From contig JAIKXR010000124.1 in NCBI GenBank assembly GCA_024683975.1, positions 1 through 61,767 of the forward strand: DNA of 61,767 nt, read 5' to 3'. The notes beneath the pieces were generated by a model, which was given only the letters and a program-made list of their open reading frames with translations, made no database searches and had not been told where the DNA came from. This document shows, piece after piece, positions 46,645-53,846 of the stretch; the stretch's first letter is position 1; each line of letters opens with the position of its first letter. The translations under genes and the position numbers were made by a program. The stretch comes from Paludibacteraceae bacterium. Its GTDB lineage: Bacteria > Bacteroidota > Bacteroidia > Bacteroidales > Paludibacteraceae.

Positions 46645-46868
46645 TGTCTGTATGCTATATCGAGCGGGTGATTACCGGGTGATTACCGGGTGATTTGCGG
46701 ATTGTTCAGCAAACCGCACCGAAGGATCACTGTAAGTTCACAAAAATATCACATCACATATTGCATATATCCTCATTTCTTTTGTACCTTTGCCGCTGTT
46801 AAACATGCCGTCCCCTGCCGAAACAGCAGGAACACTGGTTCCGGCAGCGTAAAAAAGCGGGAACATAA
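46645..46868 (+). repeat. Promoter/micro-ORF module, copy 1
   Basis: About 85-90% identical by eye to 58123-58332. It contains 3 x 11-bp GGGTGATTACC (46666-46698), CACCGAAGGA, a TACCTTTG -7 box (46785-46792) and a 15-codon ORF (46805-46852). Confidence 0.85.
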
Positions 46869-47337: not shown

Positions 47338-50300
47338 ATGTTCTTTCAAAACTCCATCCTGAAGAAATACCTCGCCATGCTCAATGATGAGCAGGTCAAG
47401 GCGGCATGGGAGCAATACCAGGCTTTGTTCCTGAATCAGACCAGGCAGGACAACATCCTTACCTCGAAAGAGGAGCAGTACCAGGAAGGTTTCCTGCGCG
47501 AGTTGTTTGTCAAGACGCTGGGTTATACCATCAACCCCGACCCCGACTTCAATCTCATTACCGAGAAGAAGAACGAGACAGACTCCAAGAAGGCGGACGG
47601 AGCCATCCAGCGTGACGGCAAAGTGATTGGCATCATCGAACTCAAAGACCATAAAACGCCGGACTTGAAGCAGGTGGAGACACAGGCATTCGGCTACAAG
47701 AACCGGCATCGTGGCACGCGGTATGTGGTCATCTCCAATTTTGAGAAACTGCGTTTCTATATTGATGACGCGACAGAATACATGGAGTGGGATTTGTTCT
47801 CGCTCAAAGAAGAGGATTTCCGTGAACTCTTTTTCTGCCTGTCATGGGACACGCTCAGCCAGGATCTGCCGATTAAAGCCAAGACGGAGAGCGTCAGCAG
47901 CGAGGACCAGATAACGCAGCAGCTCTATCGCGACTATTCCGCTTTCAAGCGTGAACTGTTTGCCGACATCCTCAAGAACAACACCACGGACGAGACACCC
48001 AAAGAGCAGATACTCCTCCTTTTCAAAAAGACACAGAAACTCCTTGACCGCCTGCTGTTCATCTTCTTTGCCGAGGACAGCGGACTGCTGCCGCCCAATT
48101 CGATGGTCCTGATTTTAGACGACTGGCAGAAACTCAAGGATATGGACGAGTACCGGCCGCTATACAGCCGCATACGGAAGTACTTCGGCTATCTCGACAC
48201 GGGCTTTCAGGGGAAACATTACGAAATCTTCGCTTACAACGGCGGCTTGTTCAAACCCGACGAGGTATTAGACAGCATCACCATCAGCGATGAGGTGCTG
48301 GCTGCGCACTGCCGCCGTCTGTCGGACTACAACTACGCTTCCGAGGTCGATGTCAATATCCTCGGACACATCTTCGAGAACTCGCTCAACGAGATTGAGG
48401 AAGTCACAGCACAAATCAACAGGAGCGCAAGCGTCCCGCTTGCGAAAAATGAAGATGCGTCAAACAGCCGCGAGCGGGACGCTCACGCTCCCGGCAAACG
48501 CAAGCGCGACGGCGTGTTCTATACCCCGCAGTATATCACCAAATACATCGTTGAGAACACTGTCGGCCGCCTCTGCGCGGAGAAAAAAGCGGAACTGGGC
48601 GTAACCGGGAGCGCAAGCGTCCCGCTTGCGAAGAAGGCTGACAAACAAGCGCGCCTGGCAGTTCTTGAACGCTACCGTGAGTGGCTTAAAGGAATCACCA
48701 TCTGCGACCCTGCCTGCGGTTCGGGTGCATTCCTCAATGCCGCGCTCCGTTTCCTGATGGATGAGCACAAACTGCTTGATGAGATGGAAGCGAAAGTGGC
48801 TGGAGCCAGTATCGTCTTCCAGAATGTGGAAAACGCCATTTTGGAGAACAACCTCTTTGGCGTGGATATCAACGAGGAGAGTGTGGAGATAGCGAAACTG
48901 GCTTTGTGGCTCCGTACCGCCAAGCCGCACCGCAAACTGAGTTCGCTTAATGATAACATTAAATGCGGTAACTCTCTTATTAACGACCCGGAAATCGCAA
49001 GAGAAAAAGCCTTCAACTGGCAGGCCGAGTTCCCGGATGTCTTCAAGAGCGCGAGCGTCCCGCTCGCGACAAATATGTCAACAGTCATGAGCGACCAACG
49101 CGAGCGGGACGCTCACGCTCCTGTTAAGCCATGGCATAGCAGACACTACGTGCCGCATATTGAGGACAAAAAATTCCAGTTTGTCACTTTCCGCTTATAC
49201 GACAGTATGCCAAAGGATATTATAGACAAATGGAAGGAAGAATTAAAGATTACTGACGAAGAGAAAACACCTGTTCCGATTTTAACCCGATTGTTAGAAC
49301 GAATAAACAAATTTGAGGATACAGGATATGGTCAGTGCTTCTTACGTGATGAACGGATAGCCAAGCTGGTGGAGGATGCTTTACTGCGTTTTGACGGTCA
49401 ACAATACAGATTGTTAAGGTGGTGCATTATGCCCAATCATGTACACGTTCTTATTGAAGTGTTACCAAACAACAGTCTGACTGCTATTATGCACTCATGG
49501 CGTTCCTATACAGCACATGAAGCAAACAAGATTTTAGAACGTACAGGAGAGTTTTGGCAAAAAGAGTATTTTGACCGTTATATACGTAATGCCCAGCATT
49601 TCCGTGATACGGTGGATTATATCGATAATAACCCTGTTAATGCAGGACTGGTTGCCACACCTGAAGATTGGCAGTGGTGTACCAGGAGCGCGAGCGTCCC
49701 GCTCGCGACAAGTGAGACGACTAACACTAACGACCTTCGCAAGCGAGACGCTTGCGCTCCTGAAGACCAACGCGAGCGGGACGCTCACGCTCCTGAAGAC
49801 CTTCGCAAGCGAGACGCTTGCGCTCCCGGCTTCGACATCGTAATCGGCAATCCGCCGTATGTGAATATGGTCAATATACTTGACGAGAACCAACGCAAGT
49901 ATTACCAAAAGAACTACAAGACTGTCAAGAACAAGTCGGATTTATATTCCATCTTTACCGAGAAGTCCGCACAACTCCTTAAACCCAACGGAAAATTCGG
50001 ATTTATCTTCTCCAACAGTTGGATGGGGACAGAGAGTTTCTCCACTTTCAGAGAGTTCCTTGCACATGATGTGAAAGTGACCAAACTGGTGGAATTGCCG
50101 CCAGGTGTCTTTTCGGATGCGACAGTGACTACCGTCCTGTGTTTTTACGAGAACACCAAACCGAAGGAAACAGATATCATTGAAATAGAGACATACAAAG
50201 ACGGGCAGTTTATTCCCAAAGGCTTTTTCCTTCCCTATAAGCAGGTACTGGAGAACCCCAATACTTCATTCTCATTTGAGAAGACAATAGAACTGAACAA

Positions 50301-51198
50301 AGTGCCGACAATCGAGTTGGGAGATATTGTCTCTTTCTCTTTGGGTATTAAGACGAGCGATGACAAGCGGTTTGTATTTGAGGAGAAGAAAGACGATGAC
50401 TGCCATTTGTTTTTGAGAGGCAGAAATATAAAAAGATGGAACACTCCGGAGAATAACGAGTGGTTGTGGTATAAACCGGAACTCATCTGCGAGAAACCCG
50501 GCGGCAGACCACGGATATTTGAAAACTTTGTAGTTGATAAGAAGATTGTAATCCAAGATATTGCTGCTGAAATAATAGCGACATTGGATTGTAATAAATA
50601 TCTGTGTAATGACACATTGAATATCATATTTGACATTGACAGAAAATATGATTTTGAATATATTTTGGTTCTGTTAAACTCTAAATTGGTAAATACTTGG
50701 TTCAAGAAAGTCTATCCAGCTGGATTACATATAAAAACCAATCAACTGGAAACAATTCCTATACCTGTTATATCTGCTGCCGACCAACAGCCCTTTATAG
50801 ACCATGCTGACCGGATGTTGTCTTTGAACAAAGACTTACAAGAGAAGCGTGCGCGGTTCCTGCGGAGACTGCAGGACAACATCAGGAGCGCGAGCGTCAC
50901 GCTCGCGGCAAACACAGACAACAATCGCGAGCGGGACGCTCACGCTCCTGTGCGTATCACCGCCGCGTTTGAGACCTTCGAAACCCTTGATTTTGCAGGC
51001 TTTGTTGCCGAACTCAAAAAGCAGAAGATCCAACTCTCCCTTGTGCAACAGGACGAGTGGGAGGACTATTTCACCCGATACAAATCTGATTGCAACGCCT
51101 TGACTGCAACAATCGCAGAGACAGACAAAGAGATTGACGCTCTTGTCTATGCCCTCTACGGTCTTACAGACGATGAAATAAAGTTGATAGAGCAATAA
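47338..51198 (+). CDS. Type IIG restriction-modification enzyme (Eco57I/MmeI-like nuclease + gamma-class N6-adenine methyltransferase + TRD) with in-frame REP and RAYT insertions
   Basis: N-terminal PD-(D/E)xK-like KADGAI...VIGIIELKD. MTase motifs are GVFYTPQYI, ICDPACGSGAFL, NLFGVDINEESVEIAKLALWL and VIGNPPYV (NPPY at 49849-49860). The C-terminus is TaqI-like (LGDIVSFSLGIKTSDDKRF). It is one uninterrupted 1286-aa frame. Confidence 0.85.
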   Translation: MFFQNSILKKYLAMLNDEQVKAAWEQYQALFLNQTRQDNILTSKEEQYQEGFLRELFVKTLGYTINPDPDFNLITEKKNETDSKKADGAIQRDGKVIGIIELKDHKTPDLKQVETQAFGYKNRHRGTRYVVISNFEKLRFYIDDATEYMEWDLFSLKEEDFRELFFCLSWDTLSQDLPIKAKTESVSSEDQITQQLYRDYSAFKRELFADILKNNTTDETPKEQILLLFKKTQKLLDRLLFIFFAEDSGLLPPNSMVLILDDWQKLKDMDEYRPLYSRIRKYFGYLDTGFQGKHYEIFAYNGGLFKPDEVLDSITISDEVLAAHCRRLSDYNYASEVDVNILGHIFENSLNEIEEVTAQINRSASVPLAKNEDASNSRERDAHAPGKRKRDGVFYTPQYITKYIVENTVGRLCAEKKAELGVTGSASVPLAKKADKQARLAVLERYREWLKGITICDPACGSGAFLNAALRFLMDEHKLLDEMEAKVAGASIVFQNVENAILENNLFGVDINEESVEIAKLALWLRTAKPHRKLSSLNDNIKCGNSLINDPEIAREKAFNWQAEFPDVFKSASVPLATNMSTVMSDQRERDAHAPVKPWHSRHYVPHIEDKKFQFVTFRLYDSMPKDIIDKWKEELKITDEEKTPVPILTRLLERINKFEDTGYGQCFLRDERIAKLVEDALLRFDGQQYRLLRWCIMPNHVHVLIEVLPNNSLTAIMHSWRSYTAHEANKILERTGEFWQKEYFDRYIRNAQHFRDTVDYIDNNPVNAGLVATPEDWQWCTRSASVPLATSETTNTNDLRKRDACAPEDQRERDAHAPEDLRKRDACAPGFDIVIGNPPYVNMVNILDENQRKYYQKNYKTVKNKSDLYSIFTEKSAQLLKPNGKFGFIFSNSWMGTESFSTFREFLAHDVKVTKLVELPPGVFSDATVTTVLCFYENTKPKETDIIEIETYKDGQFIPKGFFLPYKQVLENPNTSFSFEKTIELNKVPTIELGDIVSFSLGIKTSDDKRFVFEEKKDDDCHLFLRGRNIKRWNTPENNEWLWYKPELICEKPGGRPRIFENFVVDKKIVIQDIAAEIIATLDCNKYLCNDTLNIIFDIDRKYDFEYILVLLNSKLVNTWFKKVYPAGLHIKTNQLETIPIPVISAADQQPFIDHADRMLSLNKDLQEKRARFLRRLQDNIRSASVTLAANTDNNRERDAHAPVRITAAFETFETLDFAGFVAELKKQKIQLSLVQQDEWEDYFTRYKSDCNALTATIAETDKEIDALVYALYGLTDDEIKLIEQ
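48422..48491. repeat. REP inverted doublet 1 (forward 48422-48444, reverse 48469-48491)
   Basis: GGAGCGCAAGCGTCCCGCTTGCG / CGCGAGCGGGACGCTCACGCTCC with a 24-nt spacer. It translates as SASVPLA...RERDAHAP. Confidence 0.9.
48608..48630 (+). repeat. Solo REP unit
   Basis: GGAGCGCAAGCGTCCCGCTTGCG, identical to the forward unit of doublet 1. No inverted partner was seen. Confidence 0.85.
49046..49121. repeat. REP inverted doublet flanking the RAYT on the left (forward 49046-49068, reverse 49099-49121)
   Basis: AGAGCGCGAGCGTCCCGCTCGCG / CGCGAGCGGGACGCTCACGCTCC with a 30-nt spacer. The spacer contains in-frame ATGs at 49075 and 49087. Confidence 0.9.
49123..49683 (+). mobile_element. REP-associated tyrosine transposase (RAYT / TnpA-REP, IS200-IS605 Y1 HUH family) domain embedded in the RM ORF
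   Basis: RHYVPHIEDKKFQFVTFRL..., the HUH motif in IMPNHVHVLI (49438-49449), Tyr in SWRSYTAHEANK (49507-49509), and FWQKEYFDRYIRN..TVDYIDNNPVNAGLV..PEDWQWC. It resembles E. coli RayT/YafM-type proteins, judged from memory. It has no stop codon of its own. Confidence 0.8.
49685..49826. repeat. REP cluster right of the RAYT: one forward unit (49685-49707) plus three reverse units (49738-49760, 49771-49793, 49804-49826)
   Basis: The reverse units form three tandem 33-nt (11-codon) repeats at 49728-49826. They alternate between variants CGCAAGCGAGACGCTTGCGCTCC and CGCGAGCGGGACGCTCACGCTCC. Confidence 0.9.
50885..50948. repeat. REP inverted doublet 5 (forward 50885-50907, reverse 50926-50948)
   Basis: GGAGCGCGAGCGTCACGCTCGCG / CGCGAGCGGGACGCTCACGCTCC with an 18-nt spacer. 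It translates as SASVTLA...RERDAHAP. Confidence 0.9.
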
Positions 51199-51461: not shown

Positions 51462-52820
51462 ATGGAAACAACTGAAAACCAAAGACCCACAATTGTACTT
51501 AATCGTATGTTTGCTGGTAAATATCTCTCCAATCATATCGGGCATGAGATAATTAATATGTTCAAGTCCGACAACGGACATAACTATATATACATTCAAC
51601 CGTATGGCACCTATGATGCCATACATTTTGGAGAGATAGGCTATGTGATGCTGGTTAGAGGTTTGGAGGGTAAGCGGGCGTTGGAAGTCCTCGGTATAGC
51701 CACAGATCTGAAAGATATTTATGACCCCAAGAATACAGATATTTATGACCCCAAGAATACAAAACAGTGGAAATTTACACAGGAACTAATTAAAAAACAA
51801 GAAATCACATACGGCGGTGTGCATTTAGATAAGATATTCGTTCATAAAGTAGGAGACAAAGATGCGCAAAGTGTATATATCACTTTTGAGGCGGGCAAGG
51901 TAATGCGTCCGAATAAGCCTCTGTATTTGGTGTATGGCGAAAAAGATACTATCTGCGATTCAAATGCAAAGGTGATACTTCTTCCGAATACCGGACAGGC
52001 AAAGTCTTCTTTGAAGCAGTATTTTACAAGTGATAATGAAGATTACAAAAAACTGCTTGATTTGATTAATGAAAAGGACTTATGGACTGTTGAAACAACC
52101 AAAGTGAATACTGAGAAATCGCTTGACATGAAGAAAGAAGACAATTTCTTTGATATTTGTGGAGTGGATGACTATGAGTTGGCTTTTTCTAATGCCTTCG
52201 CCTACTTTATGGATAAATATCCGGAACTGGTAGTAGAATTTGCAAAAGAAGTTCTTGCGAAAGAAAATATCAAGGTAACCGACAAACCATTCTACATCAT
52301 TGAGCGTGAAGTGAATAATGTGGATATTCTGTTGGAAAATGATGAAAAAGTGGTTGTGATAGAGAACAAAGTAACATCAAAAATAAATGGTGTTAAGGTC
52401 GTGGATAATAAAACAATCGGAACACAACTGGATAAGTATTACAGATACGCTTTGGAGCGTGCAAATGGAGAGGATAAAGAGAATAAGGGCAAAGGCCAAG
52501 TGAAAAGGAAACAAAACAAAGAAGTTGCTTGCTATATATTGACTCCCAATTACAACCCAATAGACCTTAGCAGTTATTTTATTCCAGGGTTCAATCCGGT
52601 AAATCATTACAAACAGATTTTTTATAAACAAGTTTATGATTTCCTTAAGAACAAGCATCCCGAAGACTGGTATTTTCAAGAATTTATAAAGGGTCTGGAG
52701 AAACACACAAAGGAACATCATAATGATTTGTTTGAAGATACTATGCAGAAGTTTGTCAAACAAATCAAAGTAAAGTCAAATGAGGATAAACAAGGGAGTA
52801 CGCCCGAAATTGGTGGATAA
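51462..52820 (+). CDS. PD-(D/E)xK nuclease-family protein with an uncharacterised ~210-aa N-terminal domain
   Basis: The C-terminal half (NFFDICGVDDYELAFSNAFAYFM ... VNNVDILLENDEKVVVIENKV ... QLDKYYRY) fits the D...E.K nuclease family common in defence islands, judged from memory. The N-terminal half has no motif I recognise. Confidence 0.6.
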   Translation: METTENQRPTIVLNRMFAGKYLSNHIGHEIINMFKSDNGHNYIYIQPYGTYDAIHFGEIGYVMLVRGLEGKRALEVLGIATDLKDIYDPKNTDIYDPKNTKQWKFTQELIKKQEITYGGVHLDKIFVHKVGDKDAQSVYITFEAGKVMRPNKPLYLVYGEKDTICDSNAKVILLPNTGQAKSSLKQYFTSDNEDYKKLLDLINEKDLWTVETTKVNTEKSLDMKKEDNFFDICGVDDYELAFSNAFAYFMDKYPELVVEFAKEVLAKENIKVTDKPFYIIEREVNNVDILLENDEKVVVIENKVTSKINGVKVVDNKTIGTQLDKYYRYALERANGEDKENKGKGQVKRKQNKEVACYILTPNYNPIDLSSYFIPGFNPVNHYKQIFYKQVYDFLKNKHPEDWYFQEFIKGLEKHTKEHHNDLFEDTMQKFVKQIKVKSNEDKQGSTPEIGG

Positions 52821-53271: not shown

Positions 53272-53823
53272 ATGGACTTTAATGAATTGTCTGTTCGCTC
53301 TTTACGGCACCACCAGGTTACGCCGAGGATAATAATCAACCGCATGACAGGTGACATACTGAATTGGCTCCGTTCCATCGTCTGCACTAACGAAGAAAAA
53401 GCGGTATATGTTTTGGACGGACGAGAAATGACCGACTATCAATGGTTTTGCCAGCATTTGGAGGAAGTGCCGAACGGGTATATTGTTTTTACGCACTTAT
53501 CTGAAATTCCGTCTGGCAAGGACGCATTTCGTATCAAAGAGATGATTCGGTTTTGCCTCAGGGGATACTGGCGGTGGTGGACTATGGATGGTCTCCCTTA
53601 TCCCTTTTCCGAAAAATGGATGAGGACACTGGCGAAGAAATCCAAATTCATCGACATAATAATTATCTCTGAACGGAATGAATACAAGAAAAGCGGCACT
53701 TTCAAATCAATCGCAGAAAAGGATATTTCCTTCTCCTATCTTGCCGTATCCGACAATGGTTTTGAACCGATAAAGAAAACAAAGATAAAAACGGAGCAAG
53801 CCGAAAATCCGATTAAAGAGTAG
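53272..53823 (+). CDS. Hypothetical protein
   Basis: 183-aa ORF in an AT-rich cassette, on the same strand as its neighbours. I recognised no motif. Confidence 0.4.
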   Translation: MDFNELSVRSLRHHQVTPRIIINRMTGDILNWLRSIVCTNEEKAVYVLDGREMTDYQWFCQHLEEVPNGYIVFTHLSEIPSGKDAFRIKEMIRFCLRGYWRWWTMDGLPYPFSEKWMRTLAKKSKFIDIIIISERNEYKKSGTFKSIAEKDISFSYLAVSDNGFEPIKKTKIKTEQAENPIKE

Positions 53824-53846
53824 GCAATAATAAAACAACAACTATT

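Follow-up and report, generated by a model that had tools for sequence, protein, structure and literature searches.

A complete REPtron, i.e., a REP-associated tyrosine transposase (RAYT) flanked by repetitive extragenic palindromes (REPs), lies in frame within a restriction-modification (RM) gene in the stretch of DNA analyzed here, which comprises 61,767 nucleotides of contig JAIKXR010000124.1 from a Paludibacteraceae bacterium and is referred to as the window. The host gene encodes a Type IIG restriction-methyltransferase, and the insert occupies the loop just before the NPPY motif of its split catalytic domain. The RAYT is conserved at the same site in a diverged homologue (contig L001) and is missing from the closest allele (contig L002), and a search of genomes and metagenomes shows that the window is not a one-off case: in-frame RAYTs in defense genes recur as a class, to which it belongs. 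The insert is probably a long-lived REPtron embedded in an open reading frame (ORF), and its RAYT would be made as an internal domain that is tethered by disordered linkers encoded by the REPs; this is the reading that we favor.

Host gene and embedded REPtron

The host ORF (protein P0001) is uninterrupted from 47338 to 51198, with no in-frame stop before 51196-51198. Its Pfam domains are MmeI_N, MmeI_hel, MmeI_Mtase, Eco57I, N6_Mtase, and TaqI_C, and PADLOC calls it REase_MTase_IIG with 754 bits. The ORF is a Type IIG/IIL (MmeI/Eco57I-like) restriction-methyltransferase fusion that carries all of the inserts, and it has the single-chain architecture of this type, i.e., an N-terminal nuclease, a helical spacer, a gamma-class N6-adenine methyltransferase, and a TaqI-like target recognition domain (TRD). 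The features of the gene are as follows, with the supporting evidence in parentheses.

47338..51198 (+), host ORF, 1286 aa (ORF list, Pfam, NCBIfam, PADLOC)
48420..48491 (+), REP doublet (REPIN-like), site 1, encoding RSASVPLAKNEDASNSRERDAHAP (repeat families D2 and D3, inverted pair I24; hairpin z-score -5.8; absent in L002)
48606..48633 (+), single in-frame REP, site 2, encoding GSASVPLAK (hairpin of -10 kcal/mol)
48706..48732 (+), methyltransferase motif I (DPACGSGAF), upstream half of the split catalytic domain (invariant columns D457-F465 of alignment A1)
about 49044-49826 (+), REPtron unit (REP doublet, RAYT, and REP cluster), in frame in the loop just before NPPY
49044..49123 (+), left REP doublet of the REPtron (inverted pair I16; fold of -29.6 kcal/mol, z-score -7.4)
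49123..49683 (+), RAYT core, 187 aa, without a start or stop codon of its own (NF047646, PDB 4ER8, AlphaFold2, pN/pS against L001)
49438..49446 (+), HUH motif, His-Val-His (aligned with H59-M60-H61 of 4ER8)
49618..49620 (+), catalytic Tyr761, within VDYIDNNP (aligned with Y115 of TnpA-REP)
49630..49632 (+), Asn765, counterpart of the metal ligand N119 of TnpA-REP (alignment to 4ER8)
49683..49826 (+), right REP cluster, with a forward REP at 49683-49708 and reverse REPs at 49736-49762, 49771-49795, and 49802-49826 (fold of -52.6 kcal/mol, z-score -8.6)
49849..49860 (+), NPPY (methyltransferase motif IV), directly 3' of the insert (sequence; invariant N838-Y841 in A1)
50883..50950 (+), in-frame REP doublet, site 5, encoding RSASVTLAANTDNNRERDAHAP (inverted pair I15; z-score -9.7; absent in L002; same site in L001)

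The insert belongs to the RAYTs by homology, as the curated threshold of NCBIfam REP_Tyr_transpos (NF047646; cutoff of 80 bits) is exceeded by both the whole ORF (86.8 bits) and the isolated domain (91.7 bits). Pfam Y1_Tnp matches residues 688-765 of the ORF (E = 3.6e-11), and the RAYT core matches the E. coli TnpA-REP (PDB 4ER8; E = 6e-7), the catalytic tyrosine of which is Y115 (active-site residues from PMC3479197). An earlier note on this DNA, made from the letters alone, had proposed a complete REPtron in frame in this loop, and the repeat analysis, Pfam, and NCBIfam agree with it. The alignment with 4ER8 also confirms the position that the note gave for the HUH motif, whereas the codon that it took for the catalytic tyrosine (49507-49509) aligns with a non-Tyr position of TnpA-REP, and the true residue is Tyr761. 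The His-Val-His motif, Tyr761, and Asn765 are all retained, and the loss of catalytic residues that the note had named as a refutation (a dead RAYT relic) is not seen. In place of H123 of the E. coli enzyme, the domain has Ala, and it lacks the C-terminal extension with E161; the same is true of the free-standing relatives.

The arms at 49099-49131 and 49675-49707 are 88% complementary, and doublets flank the RAYT on both sides, as in a REPtron. A free-standing gene is not present, as there is no stop until 51198, which bears out the note's description of a stop-less RAYT, and no independent start outside the host ORF. Two in-frame ATGs, at 49075 and 49087, are located in the left-doublet spacer where the note had placed them, and an in-frame ATG is kept in this spacer in both the window and L001. 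Because neither a stop nor a frameshift separates the parts, the analysis supports the note's view that the RAYT would be produced only as an internal domain or, from an internal ATG, as a RAYT-NPPY-TRD fusion. No Bacteroidetes -7 box was found inside the RM gene, the sole match being at 46785; a sigma-70 promoter scan is unsuited to Bacteroidota and was set aside. In insert-free homologues, the flanks are contiguous, as the note had stated, and read FPQVFANG-GFDIVIGNPPY versus ...FPDVFK and GFDIVIGNPPY in the window (alignment A1); the same contiguity is seen at the DNA level in L002.

The REP motif GCGAGCGTCCCGCTCGC (up to 3 mismatches) has 14 matches in the 61.8-kb window against 0.08 expected, and all of them lie between 48427 and 50943, inside the RM gene. 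The REP sequence of the window is CAGGAGCGCGAGCGTCCCGCTCGCGA. Besides the REPtron, four additional REPs or REP doublets are in frame in the host gene. Every forward REP translates as (R/G)SASV(P/T)LA and every reverse REP as R(E/K)RDA(H/C)AP, and the right cluster reads RSASVPLA...RKRDACAP..RERDAHAP..RKRDACAP. The doublets fold into REPIN-type hairpins with z-scores of -5.8 to -9.7. The window variant of the REP was found in 0 of 165 fetched loci, and the REP family appears to be private to the RM gene within the DNA sampled. Other small repeats occupy the same kind of loop: the insert-free allele has a tandem direct repeat at site 1 (L002:11070-11130, GGTCTAACATCTAACAG twice), and L001 has two unrelated palindromes at L001:4988-5071 (AGCACGTTTCCGAACGTGCT and GTGCAACGTTTGGAAACGTTGCAC). 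The loops that hold REPs thus appear to be general sinks for small repeats.

AlphaFold2 was run on residues 330-1286 with an alignment of 102 sequences. The pLDDT values are 85-95 for most of the RAYT core, whereas those of the REP-coded segments fall below 50, which marks these segments as predicted disordered linkers. Foldseek matches of the model are the methyltransferases CamA, TaqI, BseCI, and PglX. PglX/BrxX of the BREX system are related gamma-class N6-adenine methyltransferases, and in the sequence alignment to the solved PglX/BrxX, the motif I-III half and the NPPY half match with a spacing of about 120 residues at the corresponding position, which indicates that the insertion site is intrinsically permissive. 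The earlier note had described a methyltransferase fold split by a transposase between motifs III and IV; the RAYT does lie in the pre-NPPY loop, but the exotic nature of the split was overstated in view of the PglX/BrxX spacing. Unlike the window insert, the intervening segment of PglX/BrxX is ordinary protein and not a repeat-flanked transposase. TnpA-REP is a monomer (PMC3479197), which would be compatible with life as an internal domain.

Conservation of the insert and history of its alleles

P0043, the protein encoded on contig L001 (from an independent ENA assembly), is homologous to the window protein and has another TRD. Its RAYT lies at exactly the window site, and three of the four remaining sites have REPs, including doublets at the positions that match sites 1 and 5 of the window. 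All 12 REP matches on L001 lie in the RM gene, and none is present in the other 13.7 kb. The L001 REPs retain the 5' tail CAGGAGCGC, and the stem has co-varied (GCAAGCAyCCyTGCTTGC versus GCGAGCGTCCCGCTCGC), which indicates that the hairpin is maintained at the nucleic acid level. The RAYTs of the window and L001 are 77% identical in protein sequence, with pN of 0.133 and pS of 0.90 (synonymous sites saturated), and the host domains have pN of 0.14-0.16; i.e., the RAYT is equally conserved. Conservation of the protein at saturated synonymous divergence shows selection on the RAYT as a protein in the host frame, and the domain has thus been kept for long in this stop-less form. The RAYTs of P0001 and P0043 are sisters (next best match, 61% or less), and except for L001, no relative of the window RAYT with more than 61% identity was found in the GTDB genomes and JGI metagenomes.

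These data bear on the possibility that the window shows an accident or an artifact, i.e., a recent disruptive insertion (a pseudogene with a chance open frame) or an assembly chimera. The chance that both junctions of a single case are in frame is roughly 1 in 9 to 1 in 18, and one case considered by itself could arise in this way. However, L001 has the same architecture in an independent assembly, with saturated synonymous divergence and a conserved protein, and further in-frame cases number in the dozens, among them that of Fontivita pretiosa (L056), for which the genome is complete. The RAYT has moreover lost its own stop codon, and the REPs have a strong frame bias. We regard an accident or artifact as exceedingly improbable and effectively refuted already.

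The protein closest to P0001, P0002 (L002), is without any insert and has an intact ORF. At the insertion site, the L002 DNA reads ...GTCTTC-GCCAACGG-CGGCTTCGAC..., where the window has AAG and the 49045-49826 unit. A three-way DNA comparison gives 93-100% identity of the window to L002 outside short stretches next to the REP sites (48388-48501, 48924-49013, 50816-50995, and 51056-51115). Within these stretches, the window resembles L001 at least as closely as L002. Our interpretation is that alleles have exchanged REP-bearing patches through homologous recombination, in which flanking sequence would have been co-converted. The divergence from L002 is a mosaic, with dS values of 0.26 in the N-terminal part, 0.035 in the NPPY+TRD segment, and 1.17 in the last 81 codons, and the TRD of P0043 is unrelated to that of the window between the NPPY motif and about residue 1150. 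TRD cassettes and gene ends have thus evidently been exchanged between alleles as well. The host dN/dS against L002 is 0.05-0.23, an indirect sign that methylation and cleavage activity may be retained.

In the N-terminal domain of the host, P0001 and P0043 are 74% identical, and insert-free proteins are closer to each of them: P0002 is 97% identical to P0001 (over the N-terminal 355 residues), and P0038 is 85% identical to P0043. A single ancestral insertion followed by vertical descent is therefore rejected as the sole history. The window, L001, and L002 alleles lie in three unrelated genomic neighborhoods, which indicates that the RM gene itself is mobile, and the downstream neighbors of the gene differ in L001 and L002. 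In the window, the RM gene is directly followed by a gene of 452 aa (51462-52820, +) with a weak PD-(D/E)XK match (PDDEXK_4, 21.4 bits, just under the cutoff) and a match to the PADLOC candidate defense family PDC-S26 (E = 7e-8). It may be a second defense gene in a small island. Housekeeping proteins encoded nearby group with those of Paludibacteraceae (Bacteroidales) metagenome-assembled genomes.

Presence and absence of the insert between near-identical alleles is also what would be expected from a switch at the DNA level, in which the insertion inactivates the RM enzyme and the RAYT, made from the crippled ORF, excises precisely and restores the gene, in the manner of phase variation or an intein. 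IS200/IS605-type enzymes are known for precise excision, and the need of the element for host translation signals fits such a cycle. Excision of REPs is discussed in PMC3479197. A pure switch, however, would not need the frame to be kept downstream of the RAYT, as it is in 55 embedded copies versus about 5 out of frame, and the C-terminal parts of the host are under purifying selection. The empty site of L002 differs by 8 nucleotides, so that a clean excision footprint is rejected there. The flanks look recombined rather than excised. The long co-divergence of RAYT and host described below implies a stable state and not frequent toggling. We consider a switch improbable. For a long-lived embedded REPtron, presence and absence among close alleles would arise mainly through homologous recombination of the REP-bearing patches, to which excision or insertion mediated by the RAYT may also contribute.

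Embedded RAYTs in other defense genes

A RAYT search of the GTDB species-representative genomes and JGI metagenomes gave 160 loci with 161 RAYT copies. A copy was taken as embedded when the stop-to-stop ORF extended beyond the RAYT by over 150 aa on the upstream side and by over 130 aa on the downstream side. This holds for 53 of the 161 copies (29 of 81 in GTDB and 24 of 80 in the metagenomes), and an out-of-frame arrangement with host fragments on both sides is seen in only about 5. Together with the window and L001, 55 embedded copies were available, and their hosts were typed by Pfam and PADLOC and then by blastp against the typed hosts, with the following result.

DUF1156 methylase (HmaB), 19 embedded copies
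N6_N4 (Type III Mod), 12 embedded copies
MmeI/Eco57I Type IIG, 10 embedded copies
WYL regulators, 9 embedded copies
SNF2 helicase (HmaA), 2 embedded copies
HsdM, 2 embedded copies
PurH, 1 embedded copy

The insertions fall into 12 homologous-position classes, of which 11 are in defense genes, and 54 of the 55 copies reside in such genes; the MmeI-like enzymes alone have four different insertion positions. The HUH motif is kept in all 55 copies and Y-x-x-x-N in 54. Within the site-classes, RAYT identity follows host identity (r = 0.65-0.84) down to a host identity of 45%. The REPs on both sides of the embedded RAYTs share one architecture, in which the tail TGGGAGCGC is combined with a GC stem and a loop of TCCC. 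With a crude detector applied to 54 loci, REP-like hairpins occur at 2.05/kb inside the host ORFs and at 0.56/kb in the flanking DNA, i.e., about 3.6-fold more often inside, and 105 of the 140 forward in-ORF REPs are read in the G-S/N-A-x-V-x-x-A frame. One carrier, L056, is the complete genome of a cultured isolate, F. pretiosa B-254, which argues against assembly artifacts.

The sole non-defense host is purH of a Planctomycetota metagenome-assembled genome (L083:5275-7623), in which the RAYT and its flanking REPs are in frame between the MGS-like and AICARFT domains. Two RAYTs are found in one Hma operon (L032:3208-7644 and L032:10843-12574): the first is in frame in the SNF2 helicase HmaA (residues 932-1126), and the second is in the DUF1156 methylase HmaB, the downstream part of which is in another frame.

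The strong bias toward defense genes raises the possibility that the domain was recruited by defense proteins as an exapted module of benefit to the host, either as an effector or sensor that nicks single-stranded DNA or for REP-guided rearrangement and diversification. The 54 copies and 11 site-classes in defense genes, the co-divergence with hosts down to 45% identity, the conservation of the RAYT at the level of the host domains, the universal retention of the catalytic residues, and the presence of RAYTs in both genes of the L032 Hma operon are all consistent with this. On the other hand, the domain is always bracketed by the REP hairpins that are typical of a mobile REPtron, its position varies within a host family, as the four sites in MmeI-like enzymes show, and most members of the host family are insert-free. 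An allele with 93-100% identity to the window has an intact ORF without the insert, and the housekeeping gene purH is among the hosts. Exaptation thus seems rather unlikely, though it is the alternative that we take most seriously.

The pre-NPPY loop has been colonized independently at least three times, i.e., by the window/L001 lineage, by the RAYT lineage of L100, and by the Y1 transposase of protein P0051. The L100 RAYT (L100:4001-4549; ORF of 1382 aa) is 55% identical and lies in the same loop of a homologous enzyme, in the order FPQVFGTG, RAYT, and RGFDVVIGNPPY; its REP family is different and is read as the peptides GTQVSHLR and AAGETPAY. P0051 (L005:8106-11762), a third homologue, has a different Y1_Tnp-like insert in this loop (Pfam E = 1e-9) with an HMH motif and the Tyr motif EYVKNN, and repeated TSGHAPKS(E/Q)HA peptides occur within the transposase, between the HUH and Tyr motifs.

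RAYTs joined in frame to another gene at one end were also observed, at the C-terminus of a HAD hydrolase (L016, L048, and L103) and at the N-terminus of a radical SAM/DUF3641 protein (L068). Many free RAYTs of Bacteroidales are syntenic and lie just downstream of an OMP_b-brl_3 beta-barrel gene (L010-L026 and L088-L094), and in L010, the RAYT is read through from the outer-membrane beta-barrel gene.

In a phmmer search of 1.84 billion representative proteins, the RAYT domain lies within proteins of at least 450 aa in about 21 of the best 150 matches. In a word-indexed protein search with the RAYT alone, the best 120 matches were all free-standing RAYTs, and P0001 and P0043 were not among them; embedded RAYTs are thus easily missed by such searches, which are unsuited to counting them. 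A few short RAYT proteins (208-231 aa) among the word-indexed matches are named "putative DNA methylase" by JGI.

Mode of life and relation to known systems

According to the reading that we favor, the REPtron would reside in a permissive surface loop directly N-terminal to the beta-strand that bears NPPY. Because it has no start, stop, or recognizable promoter of its own, it would be transcribed with the host gene and translated within the host polypeptide, and initiation at 49075 or 49087 could in addition give the RAYT-NPPY-TRD fusion. The GC-rich REPs would be read in one preferred frame as disordered linkers of small residues (SASVPLA / RERDAHAP), on which the RAYT may fold as an extruded domain while the two methyltransferase halves re-associate. 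Both partners are under purifying selection, and since the NPPY motif and the TRD lie downstream of the RAYT and would be lost with any nonsense or frameshift mutation in it, selection on the host gene would shield the element. REP copies seem to accumulate in other variable loops of the same ORF and not genome-wide, as judged from the DNA sampled, and the element may deposit or maintain them locally, with the RAYT presumably active and acting on the intragenic REPs in cis. What the data show directly is the anatomy of the element, the selection on it, its recurrence, its bias in hosts, and its co-divergence with them.

Several observations weigh against this reading. The AlphaFold2 model is mediocre overall (mean pLDDT of 66.8, pTM of 0.44). 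We infer the function of the full-length protein from selection only. The confinement of the REPs was seen over 61.8 kb of the source genome. The 8 differing nucleotides at the empty site of L002 mean that this allele is not a clean excision product, and the insert-bearing alleles are not sisters on the host backbone. Finally, insertion tolerance alone does not explain the bias toward defense genes, which hints at a functional link. The embedded REPtron may be selfish or useful to its host.

The REPtron, i.e., a RAYT (TnpA-REP) with its REPs or REPINs, was reportedly described in work by Nunvar in 2010, Bertels and Rainey in 2011, Ton-Hoang in 2012, and Messing in 2012 (PDB 4ER8). The window element resembles a classical REPtron in its HUH-Tyr Y1 enzyme, which scores above the REP_Tyr_transpos cutoff, and in the GC-rich hairpin REPs that lie inverted on both sides, form REPIN-like long hairpins as doublets, and co-vary in their stems between lineages. 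Classical RAYTs are free-standing and intergenic, and their REPs are extragenic and genome-wide; in contrast, the window RAYT is an internal protein segment without start or stop, and all detectable REPs of the window are intragenic, translated, and confined to one gene. The window clade also differs from the E. coli TnpA-REP in the C-terminal extension and at H123, as noted above.

Palindromes that are translated in frame in variable loops without destruction of the host are known from the Rickettsia palindromic elements and from miniature inverted-repeat transposable elements in genes (PMC3184786). Both kinds are non-autonomous repeats; in the window, in contrast, the transposase gene is embedded as well and depends on the host ORF for its expression.

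The insert resembles inteins with a homing endonuclease in that a selfish nuclease-type module lies in frame in a host protein, it is protected since the host gene would not survive its imprecise loss, it passes from one allele to another together with co-converted flanks, and the same sites are colonized repeatedly. Unlike inteins, the module would stay in the mature protein, and it is an HUH transposase and not a LAGLIDADG or HNH endonuclease. An intein is rejected because Pfam finds no Hint/intein domain and the insert ends in ...DACAP followed by Gly and not in HN followed by C/S/T; protein splicing is consequently not expected.

IStrons likewise place an element of the IS200/IS605 superfamily within a coding gene without abolishing it, but a group I ribozyme splices them out of the mRNA, whereas the insert would be translated and no intron family is recognized by Rfam. 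An IStron and a group I or II intron are rejected, as the Rfam scan of the whole window at gathering thresholds gave only two DUF805b motifs (RF02914) elsewhere, at 53791-53826 (+, 45.9 bits) and 1112-1146 (-, 38.5 bits). An IS200/IS605 element is also rejected, since the IS200 model scores 28-32 bits (cutoff of 55), no tnpB-like ORF is adjacent, and the flanks are REP arrays.

In the current view, RAYTs are domesticated transposases, present as free-standing single-copy genes, whose task is to service extragenic REPs; their cellular role is a long-standing question. RAYTs, REPtrons, and in-frame palindromic repeats are each already known. Full-text searches of the literature library gave no account of in-frame RAYTs in defense genes, of a RAYT found solely as a stop-less domain inside its host protein, of a private set of intragenic REPs, or of recurrence across defense families and phyla, and there is a substantial chance that the embedded REPtron deserves recognition as an element class of its own.

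We further propose, with the chances evenly balanced, that ORF-embedded REPtrons represent a distinct and ancient lifestyle of HUH transposases. These elements would have given up their own expression signals and would live as linker-tethered domains of defense proteins (Hma, Type I/III/IIG methylases, and WYL) with private intragenic REPs. They would co-diverge and be transferred horizontally together with the defense gene and be exchanged between alleles by gene conversion, as a non-splicing analogue of inteins at the DNA level, and they might aid the function or variability of the defense gene.

The finding exposes a blind spot of annotation, as defense-gene annotation and surveys of domain architecture silently include transposase inserts, and it offers a lead for protein engineering in the form of natural large domain insertions that are tolerated in methyltransferase folds. 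For transposons, it would represent a new strategy, in which the promoter, start, and stop are borrowed from the host and the element's own repeats serve as peptide linkers. REP/RAYT biology is tied in this way to RM and Hma systems, a link that is directly testable, and the picture of the RAYTs changes with a clade that has persisted for long solely within other proteins, almost exclusively those of anti-phage defense.

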